From a virus (Duplodnaviria > Heunggongvirae > Uroviricota > Caudoviricetes), in IMG/VR virus record IMGVR_UViG_648276650_000002, positions 1 through 23,198 of that record: a stretch of DNA of 23,198 nt; one strand, written 5' to 3'. The notes under the pieces were generated by a model. The model made no database searches. It was not told where the DNA came from and saw only the letters and a list, made by a program, of their open reading frames with translations. The position numbers were made by a program, and so were the translations under genes. Positions 9,022 to 10,278 of this stretch are shown one piece after another (within the stretch, counting starts at the first letter, position 1; every line of letters starts with the position of its first letter).

Positions 9022-9333
9022 ATGGATCGCCTAATTAGAGAAATGTCGTATCTCTTTACCAAGCAGCGTTTTATGGAGCTTCAGGAAACGGCAAAAGACA
9101 TCGCAATCGGTCATAGTGATTTTCCTGAGTGTTTCGGTCTTATTGCTGACGCCATCGCTGAATTTGTTGAAGACACTCCTGATGATGAGTGGCGAGAGCA
9201 TGAAAAAATCCTTATGCACTACGTTGCTATGCGTGTTCTGACGCTGTGGGGTAACGGCGATAAAGTGACTGATGTCCAGTGGGCGCACCCTGGCTGGTTT
9301 GGCACTGCTGAAAAGGGGGAAACCATTCAATGA
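9022..9333 (+). CDS. Hypothetical protein, 104 aa
   Basis: ATG at 9022 with a GAGG Shine-Dalgarno; stop overlaps the Q start (ATGA). Confidence 0.5.
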   Translation: MDRLIREMSYLFTKQRFMELQETAKDIAIGHSDFPECFGLIADAIAEFVEDTPDDEWREHEKILMHYVAMRVLTLWGNGDKVTDVQWAHPGWFGTAEKGETIQ

Positions 9334-10166
9334 AGTTGGAAGCATCACTAAAACACTTTAGCCCTCAGGGTGTGCACATCAGCGACGACGTGAAAGGAAC
9401 CTCTCCGGACCGCCTTACAGGAACAGATGTAATGGCGGCAATTGGCACCACCAGCAGCCGTGCGCGCTTCGGACTGGCGGCGTTCTTCGGTAAAGCGGGA
9501 ATCAGCAAAACGGATGAACAGCTCGCAGTTCAGGCGCTGGCGCGATATGCGATGGATGTCGCACCGAAGAATGTTCGCAAAGCAGCTGGTGGGCAGTTCG
9601 GATGGTGCATGCAGATGTTGGCACAATTTGCCTTTGCTGATTATTCACGTTCGGCGGCTACAAGCGTGACGTGTCACAGCTGCAGTGGTACCGGACGAAC
9701 AACCCGCGAACAGATTACCCGCAAGGTTTCGTACCCATGGGGTAAAGCTCCATACTGGGCCTGCCGCTCTCGTGCTGTTCGACCGTCTGACTGGGAGCAG
9801 TGGATGGAGGTAACAGAGGTTGTACCGGCGGTCTGTGATGCTTGCGAAGGCAAGGGAACGATCAGCGCCCGTTGTCGTTGCGGCGGTAAAGGCGAGGTTC
9901 TAGACCGCAAGGCCACAAGCGAGCGCGGCGCGCCGGTGTTTAAAACCTGCGAGCGCTGCAGCGGAAATGGATTTTCTGCGGTGCCGTCTACCGCAGCCTA
10001 TAAAGTGATACTGAAGCGCGTTCCGGATCTGCACGTCAGAACATGGACTCGCAACTGGAAACCGTTTCTTGAGGCGCTGGTAAGCATTTGTCAGCAGGAG
10101 GAGGGAAACGCCGCAAGAGAATTTCAATCTGCAACCAGTTTAGGCGAAGAAGGTGACGAAATTTAG
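9330..10166 (+). CDS. Q: Late-gene antiterminator Q (phage 21/82/933W-type) with four CxxCxGxG zinc-finger motifs
   Basis: Conserved Q-family blocks (DRLTGTDVMAAIG, FADYSRSAAT, SAAYK...TWTRNWKP). Four motifs CHSCSGTG, CDACEGKG, CRCGGKGE, CERCSGNG. Sits immediately upstream of the late region. Confidence 0.8.
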   Translation: MKLEASLKHFSPQGVHISDDVKGTSPDRLTGTDVMAAIGTTSSRARFGLAAFFGKAGISKTDEQLAVQALARYAMDVAPKNVRKAAGGQFGWCMQMLAQFAFADYSRSAATSVTCHSCSGTGRTTREQITRKVSYPWGKAPYWACRSRAVRPSDWEQWMEVTEVVPAVCDACEGKGTISARCRCGGKGEVLDRKATSERGAPVFKTCERCSGNGFSAVPSTAAYKVILKRVPDLHVRTWTRNWKPFLEALVSICQQEEGNAAREFQSATSLGEEGDEI

Positions 10167-10186
10167 CATTATTACGACATAAGGCT

Positions 10187-10216
10187 TGATTTTGTCCGAA
10201 GTTGTCGTGTATGCTT
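10187..10216 (+). promoter_or_regulatory. Candidate late promoter (pR'-like)
   Basis: TTGATT (10187-10192), 18-bp spacer, TATGCT (10211-10216), directly downstream of Q and upstream of a terminator. Inferred from motif and position only. Confidence 0.3.
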
Positions 10217-10256
10217 CTAATCATGCGGAGTAACGCCTGAAAGATTTCAACAATAA

Positions 10257-10278
10257 GCCCCTTGCGGGGCTTTTTTAT
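10257..10278. terminator. Rho-independent terminator (tR'-like), likely bidirectional
   Basis: Stem gcccc / ggggc with loop ttgc and a run of six T on the plus strand. The stop of the convergent 316-aa gene lies in the T-run. Confidence 0.7.

Follow-up and report, generated by a model that had tools for sequence, protein, structure and literature searches.

Lambdoid phages switch on their late genes through Q antiterminators, a textbook case, and toxin release in Stx phages is under Q control. The λ protein, Qλ, consists of a four-helix body with a helix-turn-helix (HTH), a zinc-ribbon arm (residues 114–152) and a disordered N-terminus (Yin et al. 2022, PMC9388147). On the 13-base-pair (bp) Q-binding element (QBE), the Qλ body contacts positions 1–4 and the arm positions 11–13, and the N-terminus, together with NusA, refolds into a nozzle on the RNA-exit channel (PMC9388147). 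The Qλ-family antiterminator of phage P22 (gene 23, NC_002371) sits in a compact unit with the P late promoter and the t late terminator. Here we describe a Q gene and its predicted late promoter in a 23,198-nucleotide (nt) stretch of tailed-virus DNA (positions 1 to 23,198 of IMG/VR record IMGVR_UViG_648276650_000002; hereafter the window), which is an E. coli prophage. The locus is very probably a complete Qλ-type late-gene switch of a lambdoid E. coli prophage. Family membership, conservation, element spacing and protein–DNA covariation support this reading, within which we infer promoter activity, the start site, pausing, zinc pairing, nozzle formation and read-through. As such it is an ordinary late switch, with nothing new in kind, and it has one unusual, under-studied part: an enlarged DNA-binding arm with two predicted zinc sites, common to many related prophages.

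A Q gene of the Qλ family

The Q gene (9330–10166, plus strand) encodes 278 amino acids, and the preceding open reading frame (ORF) ends in a stop codon that overlaps its ATG. A first-pass annotation made from the sequence had called it a Q antiterminator, an identity that Pfam, PHROGs, phmmer and Foldseek all confirm by pointing to the Qλ family. The protein matches PF03589 in two stretches (180.6 bits against a cut-off of 26.7, E = 6e-54) and belongs to phrog_127 (E = 1e-100). In a phmmer search of the PDB it matches 7ubm_Q at E = 2.8e-39, and the only real sequence matches there are Qλ chains (7UBM/7UBN, 4MO1 and 7UBJ-L). The alignment pairs Q residues 1–125 with Qλ 1–128 and residues 179–262 with Qλ 115–199; it spans the N-terminus, the arm and the C-terminal body, and leaves about 55–65 Q residues without a λ counterpart. 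Overall identity to Qλ is about 32%. An AlphaFold2 (AF2) model of the full protein, with a predicted local distance difference test (pLDDT) score of 73.6, finds Qλ chains as its only significant Foldseek matches (7ubn_Q at E = 2e-10; target-normalised template-modelling (TM) scores of 0.72–0.78 to Qλ chains).

The N-terminal region (residues 1–112; 9330–9665, plus strand) aligns with Qλ 1–115 and is probably the counterpart of the Qλ nozzle segment and the first half of the body. The HTH of the body is predicted at residues 220–247 (9987–10070, plus strand), from AF2 helices 220–230 and 236–272, with H235-V-R-T-W-T-R241 forming the N-terminus of the second helix. This assignment rests on alignment and AF2 secondary structure, because PMC9388147 gives no residue-level text on the Qλ recognition helix.

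The gene order (primase/helicase gene, Q, tRNAs, λ-family holin, lysozyme, terminase) places Q ahead of the lysis genes, as in λ. Of 5,426 complete genomes, eight cover 80% or more of the queried stretch, and in six of these the identity reaches at least 98%; Q is annotated there as "antitermination protein". A CII/C1-type TTGC-N6-TTGC site for a paQ-like antisense promoter is absent from the Q gene; the single match in the window, at 14068, is at chance level.

A conserved block with a predicted promoter, Q-binding element and pause element

We aligned the region downstream of Q in five sequences: the window, two prophages of E. coli (EC2001 and D53-1), a 99.3% identical locus from E. coli AW1.7 and a Klebsiella phage; Q identity is about 74–82% in the three that have diverged. 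The block CTTGATTTTGTCCGAAGTTGTCGTGTATGCTTCTAATCATG hardly varies among them, in contrast to its diverging flanks, and it lines up with the λ and P22 late promoter, pR'. It begins with the −35 hexamer TTGATT (10186–10191, plus strand), which is invariant in the alignment and the positional homologue of TTGACT in λ and P22. Directly behind it lies a putative QBE, TTGTCCGAAGTTG (10192–10204, plus strand), with the TTG-N7-TTG, 13-bp layout of the λ element TTGAATAAAATTG; the corresponding λ/P22 sequence is TTGAATAAA(A/G)TTG, and binding by the window protein is predicted. The −10 hexamer TATGCT (10210–10215, plus strand; TAAATT in λ and P22) follows the −35 hexamer after an 18-nt spacer, as against 17 nt in λ, and all relatives have a TAnnnT hexamer here (e.g. 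TAAGCT, TATATT or TAGAGT). Last comes a candidate σ-dependent pause element (SDPE), AATCAT (10219–10224, plus strand), which is −10-like, with A at position 2 and T at position 6, a nAnnnT pattern that is conserved; λ and P22 have AACGAT followed by GG. Unlike λ, the window has no TTGACT-like −35-like element before the pause element. The distance from the end of the QBE to the SDPE is 14 nt in the window and in λ and P22 alike. From the position of the hexamers only, transcription is predicted to start at about 10222–10223.

The first-pass annotation had proposed the TTGATT-18-TATGCT promoter at 10187–10216. The hexamers are present and lie in the conserved block, one base further upstream, at 10186–10215. 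The annotation had overlooked the QBE and the SDPE, which by homology would make the unit Q-dependent.

A wider survey of 64 loci lends weight to this arrangement. The composite TTG-N7-nTG, 14 nt, nAnnnT occurs at 46 of the 64, including λ and P22, versus 91 of 12,800 shuffled sequences (0.7%). At all 46, without exception and whatever the length of the arm hairpin described below, the first QBE half-site changes together with the N-terminus of the second HTH helix. Proteins with H[VILP]RTW[TS]R, among them the window Q (HVRTWTR), go with TTGTCC (23/23 loci), those with [HT]QSSWSR go with TTGCAT (21/21), and TQPTWSR, the λ version, goes with TTGAAT (2/2). Of all the evidence presented, this covariation between protein and DNA sequence argues most strongly that the window Q would act at the block.

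The same survey indicates that the promoter hexamers slide by 1–3 nt against a fixed frame of QBE and pause element. At the locus from Xenorhabdus lircayensis (L056), TTGCATT occurs three times in tandem 3' of Q (TTGCATTTTGCATTTTGCATAAAG), across the −35/QBE region, which hints at slippage or duplication of the half-site.

A close terminator and a predicted short leader RNA

An intrinsic terminator, tR', follows at 10255–10278 on the plus strand, identified by a terminator scan and by folding. The scan reported 10255–10272 on the plus strand, the stem-loop itself, and the T-run occupies 10271–10276. The hairpin has a 7-bp stem with a GC core (GCCCC/GGGGC) and a TTGC loop, and the first two of the six T lie inside the stem. 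A stretch of about 112 bp behind the Q stop codon contains both promoter and terminator. A terminator close behind the promoter, as first proposed, is borne out by the plus-strand scan, the fold and the hairpins found at the equivalent position in the relatives of the five-sequence alignment, where stem sequences differ. A terminator-like hairpin lies at most 75 nt from the SDPE at 40 of 43 distinct loci, versus 8% of shuffles, and across loci the hairpin begins a median of 38 nt after the first base of the SDPE. In the window the two begin at 10219 and 10255, in P22 at locus positions 1702 and 1732; both hairpins start roughly 30–40 nt after the pause element.

With a start at about 10222–10223 and a 3' end at about 10276–10279, the predicted leader RNA is about 55 nt long. 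This is a sound prediction because a close terminator is the family rule and because the P22 leader is about 59 nt, given its annotated late-RNA 5' end at locus position 1702 and terminator at 1732–1760. The very short leader put forward in the first-pass annotation is therefore well supported as a prediction. The λ 6S leader, at about 194 nt, makes λ the exception to the compact unit: the window terminator lies about 35 nt after the SDPE, whereas in λ the first 200 nt or so behind the Q stop codon showed none.

A different role for this RNA deserves consideration. In Stx1 phage, pR' is described as always active and terminated just downstream, and the resulting short RNA, StxS, is a regulatory small RNA (sRNA) made upstream of the Q-controlled genes (PMC7547250). 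The window resembles this arrangement in architecture only, and on the strength of that resemblance its RNA of about 55 nt could likewise be a prophage-encoded regulatory sRNA, constitutive in lysogens. The predicted RNA, a small 5' hairpin followed by an A/U-rich single-stranded stretch and a terminator with a U-run, has a suitable form. The leader between SDPE and terminator is poorly conserved among relatives, its predicted fold (−19.1 kcal/mol) has a z-score of just −1.84, and it matches no Rfam family. We consider such a role unlikely and read the RNA as the terminated leader of a Q-dependent late promoter.

Two probable tandem zinc ribbons in the arm

The roughly 55–65 residues without a λ counterpart belong to the enlarged arm region. 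The first-pass annotation had counted four CxxCxGxG motifs in Q. Three are strict: knuckle 1, C115HSCSGTG (9672–9695), knuckle 2, C169DACEGKG (9834–9857), and knuckle 4, C207ERCSGNG (9948–9971), all on the plus strand. The third, C182RCGGKG (9873–9893, plus strand), is a CxCxGxG variant one residue short, CRCGGKG. In an alignment of 35 homologues (71–97% identity to the window Q) all eight knuckle cysteines are invariant; the ninth cysteine, C144, is not conserved and is usually replaced by Ser. The CxC form of knuckle 3 is invariant in the clade of the window Q.

Knuckles 3 and 4 form what is best read as the ancestral Qλ-type arm ribbon (residues 180–216; 9867–9977, plus strand). C182, C184, C207 and C210 align with the Qλ zinc ligands C118, C121, C144 and C147, and the sole gap relative to Qλ in this unit is one residue in the first knuckle (CRC versus CRDC in λ); the number of residues from C184 to C207 equals that from C121 to C144 in λ. 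Short-form relatives (P0133, L065) have only this unit, often also with CxC. A Cys4 zinc-ribbon arm of the Qλ type is present in the window Q, and metal binding is predicted.

Knuckles 1 (C115, C118) and 2 (C169, C172) belong to a second putative ribbon of about 67 residues, inserted before the arm (residues 113–179; 9666–9866, plus strand), which is absent from Qλ and falls in the alignment gap. They probably close the base of a long β-hairpin with 12 residues per strand (123–134 and 157–168) and the tip YPWGKAPYWA-RSRAVRPSDWE, which appeared between knuckles 1 and 2 in two AF2 runs, one on the full protein and one on the arm alone (pLDDT 68.7). The start-to-start spacing of knuckles 1 and 2 ranges from 9 residues (L031) to about 60, with about 107 in one representative (P0208), that of knuckles 2 and 3 is always 13 residues, and that of knuckles 3 and 4 is 25–26 apart from two loci at 28 and 41. 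By sequence, the length and composition of the inserted hairpin vary freely in the Q family. Because knuckles 3 and 4 are homologous to the Qλ pair, the 1–2 spacing is variable and the AF2 hairpin lies between knuckles 1 and 2, the most likely arrangement of the four knuckles is a pair of zinc ribbons in tandem, formed by 1+2 and 3+4.

Long-arm Q proteins of this kind also occur in Gifsy-2 (STM1022), ST104 (gene 23) and a Stx2c-converting phage. They are 250–265 amino acids long with four knuckles and a close terminator each, and that of Gifsy-2 has a hairpin tip motif in common with the window Q (kvtYPdGKpPkW...PSDWEvW). Identity to the window Q is only 35–39%. Gifsy-2 and the Stx2c phage also differ from the window in having a λ-like AACGAT that begins 12 nt after the −10 start and a first QBE half-site outside strict TTG-N7-nTG; for ST104 no QBE or pause element was assigned. 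The P22 protein, in contrast, is of the short two-knuckle form (207 amino acids), and the P22 promoter, QBE and SDPE differ very little from the λ elements.

We looked for correlates of the inserted ribbon, and those tested all failed. Knuckle number at first seemed to set the position of the −10 hexamer, with 2 nt from QBE to −10 in two-knuckle loci versus 3 or 5 nt in four-knuckle loci; this link was ruled out by the four-knuckle Gifsy-2 and Stx2c phage, which keep the λ-like 12 nt from −10 to AACGAT. The idea that the extra ribbon replaces the −35-like TTGACT that precedes the pause element was dismissed in turn, since the two-knuckle loci L069–L074 also lack TTGACT. Hairpin type does not set QBE specificity either: proteins with knuckle 1–2 spacings of 9, 38, 43 and 54 share one QBE. 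Specificity tracks the HTH and not the hairpin. Paper searches turned up no study of the extra ribbon.

Likeness to the DnaJ cysteine-rich domain

The first-pass annotation had read the four motifs as a DnaJ-like zinc-finger module. The likeness holds at the level of the motif: like the DnaJ/Hsp40 cysteine-rich domain (PF00684), the window Q has repeated CxxCxGxG knuckles, with two predicted zinc sites from four knuckles. It does not extend to the domain. PF00684 scores 27.8 bits against a cut-off of 32.7 (E = 3e-6), TIGR02349 21.9 bits against 377.2 on residues 166–215 (E = 9.5e-5) and NF008035 15.9 bits against 338. Pfam finds neither a J domain nor a DnaJ C-terminal domain in Q, and Foldseek lists no DnaJ chain among the significant matches of the full model. 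With the arm alone, a weak test given its pLDDT of 68.7, Foldseek found nothing significant, DnaJA2 being the only DnaJ entry (E = 1.7, probability 0.03, TM 0.14). Zinc pairing in DnaJ is interleaved, motif 1 with 4 and 2 with 3, unlike the sequential pairing that we propose for Q, which in addition has one CxC knuckle.

Could the region nevertheless be a genuine DnaJ-type cysteine-rich domain, homologous or captured, with interleaved zinc and a chaperone-like or protein-binding role on Q? Three CxxCxGxG motifs with one near-motif, the low E-values for PF00684 and TIGR02349, and the precomputed PF00684 label carried by many homologues would speak for it. We judge it very unlikely, as the scores fall under the curated cut-offs, the J and C-terminal domains are absent and no DnaJ structure was recovered beyond the insignificant DnaJA2 match of the arm. 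Moreover, the knuckle motif is, on alignment, already native to the single zinc ribbon of the Qλ arm, and knuckles 3 and 4 are homologous to the Qλ pair, which together binds one zinc (4MO1/7UBJ; PMC9388147). A like case is described for phage Loki, where InterPro tagged a Q-like protein as an incomplete DnaJ cysteine-rich domain (PMC5313236). Two tandem ribbons of Qλ type remain our preferred reading of the arm.

Proposed mechanism and points against it

Modelled on the Qλ structures (PMC9388147), the switch would work as follows. Without Q, RNA polymerase would start at about 10222–10223 at pR' and stop at the terminator (10255–10276), releasing the leader. Q would act on the adjacent pR', its body HTH reading the first QBE half-site (TTGTCC...) and its zinc-ribbon arm reaching the second TTG, ten bp on. 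Next, σ70 region 2 would re-bind the −10-like AATCAT 14 nt downstream and hold the polymerase. Q would then load, and its N-terminal 60 residues would form the RNA-exit-channel nozzle that blocks formation of the terminator hairpin. The modified polymerase would pass the terminator, cross a convergent 316-amino-acid gene antisense, and continue via a tRNA cluster and an STnc100-like element into the lysis and structural genes.

Several observations weigh against this reading. The promoter matches consensus at only 8 of 12 positions and has a sub-optimal 18-nt spacer, and a consensus promoter scan did not list TTGATT-18-TATGCT; its significance comes from conservation, because the consensus match alone is weak. 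Between QBE and −10 hexamer there are 5 nt, as against 2 nt in λ, and the SDPE consequently starts only 9 nt after the −10 start (12 nt in λ), over the predicted start site. With λ-like pausing, the RNA in the paused complex would lack about 3 nt compared with that of λ. In the survey, 18 of the 64 loci do not carry the strict composite, some having 15-nt spacing or a variant first half-site. Finally, AF2 confidence is moderate for both the full protein and the arm, and the zinc pairing is predicted.

The convergent gene and the region downstream

A convergent ORF of 316 amino acids (10275–11225, minus strand) borders the terminator, its stop codon (10275–10277) overlapping the tR' T-run. It is a cassette neighbour and not a working part of the switch. 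Its sole family assignment is phrog_7003; Pfam, PADLOC and NCBIfam gave nothing. It is AT-rich, with 35–45% GC versus 56–60% in Q, and contains a Cys/His-rich stretch, CGKSSCRTGH...GHVCG. Homologues occupy the same position in E. coli EC2001 (23% identity) and in AW1.7 (a truncated copy, 99%), and the ORF looks like a long-standing moron at the tR' junction.

The tR' hairpin also forms on the minus strand, where it is followed by UAUUGUUG and has a weaker U-tail, and the terminator scan made no minus-strand call there, the tail being too T-poor. Since it is conserved in loci without a convergent gene, we regard the hairpin as primarily tR'; a secondary service to the 316-amino-acid gene is plausible. 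The converse would be that it mainly terminates this gene, that TTGATT/TATGCT matches by chance and that late transcription actually starts at a promoter further downstream, such as one near the tRNAs or the STnc100-like element. The stop codon overlapping the T-run, the minus-strand hairpin with its tail and the weak promoter consensus could all be read this way, as could a second terminator (12040–12059) and the sRNA-like element before the holin gene. This explanation seems very unlikely to us. The promoter/QBE/SDPE block with an equidistant terminator recurs without an adjacent convergent gene in L004, in P22 and in many of the loci L005–L066, and the block is homologous to the experimentally defined pR' of λ. 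Protein and DNA co-vary at 46 of 46 loci, and the minus-strand tail falls short of a terminator call. A Qλ-type switch at pR' remains the preferred account.

Further along the path of the predicted late transcript is the tRNA cluster (11351–11659, plus strand), with anticodons CAT (Met or Ile2), TGT (Thr) and TCC (Gly). ARAGORN reports a fourth tRNA at 11430–11503 with an abnormal two-base anticodon, unconfirmed by Rfam, which may be a pseudo-tRNA. The match to the prophage sRNA family STnc100 (RF02076; 11878–12070, plus strand) covers the full model with 71.7 bits against a gathering score of 47, and ends at the plus-strand terminator at 12040–12059, between the tRNA cluster and the holin gene. 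A 2026 preprint links the sRNAs STnc100 and PasD to prophages with PF03589 Q genes.

Distribution and mosaicism of long-arm Q genes

A large protein collection contains 560 matches to the window Q. The best 120 of these are mostly 270–278 amino acids long (range 244–280), nearly all come from Enterobacteriaceae prophages and many are already tagged PF03589+PF00684. With one genome per species, we found 62 loci across Enterobacterales (Photorhabdus, Yersinia, Pantoea, Providencia, Serratia and others), in which nearly all full-length Q genes have four knuckles. Representatives at 50% identity with at least 190 amino acids comprise 25 four-knuckle and 13 λ-like two-knuckle proteins; in this set, retrieved with the window query and biased towards it, the four-knuckle form is about twice as common as the two-knuckle form, yet all solved structures are of the short form.

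Sequence comparisons suggest that Q genes are mosaic, the hairpin module being swapped at the knuckle motifs. Phages Fraca, LMessi, AsXd-1, CharmingMan and Fostie match the first 365 nt of Q at 91–97% identity, the match ending at the end of knuckle 1 (9330–9694 matched, 9695–10166 not). In SaltyDalty the match runs to nt 650, the end of knuckle 4, and in P0118 the flanks are identical and the hairpin is different. Directly upstream of the intact Q gene of AW1.7 (L001, 2903–3997) are a second, truncated antitermination-protein pseudogene and a truncated AAA ATPase pseudogene, which look like a recombination scar at the Q junction.

Implications

In one speculative joint reading, the inserted ribbon would be a functional second arm making a contact that Qλ lacks, and the pR' leader would double as a prophage sRNA; we think this rather unlikely. 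Candidate partners of such an arm could be extra DNA, a repositioned σ region 4, the β-flap or NusA. If true, the second arm would change Q loading at promoters that have the pause element over the start site and no −35-like element. For the family as a whole, the first three or four residues of the second HTH helix appear to reveal the QBE specificity. Together with the sliding of the promoter hexamers against the fixed frame of QBE and pause element, this covariation provides a testable prediction of how Q proteins and late promoters pair up in mosaic prophages.

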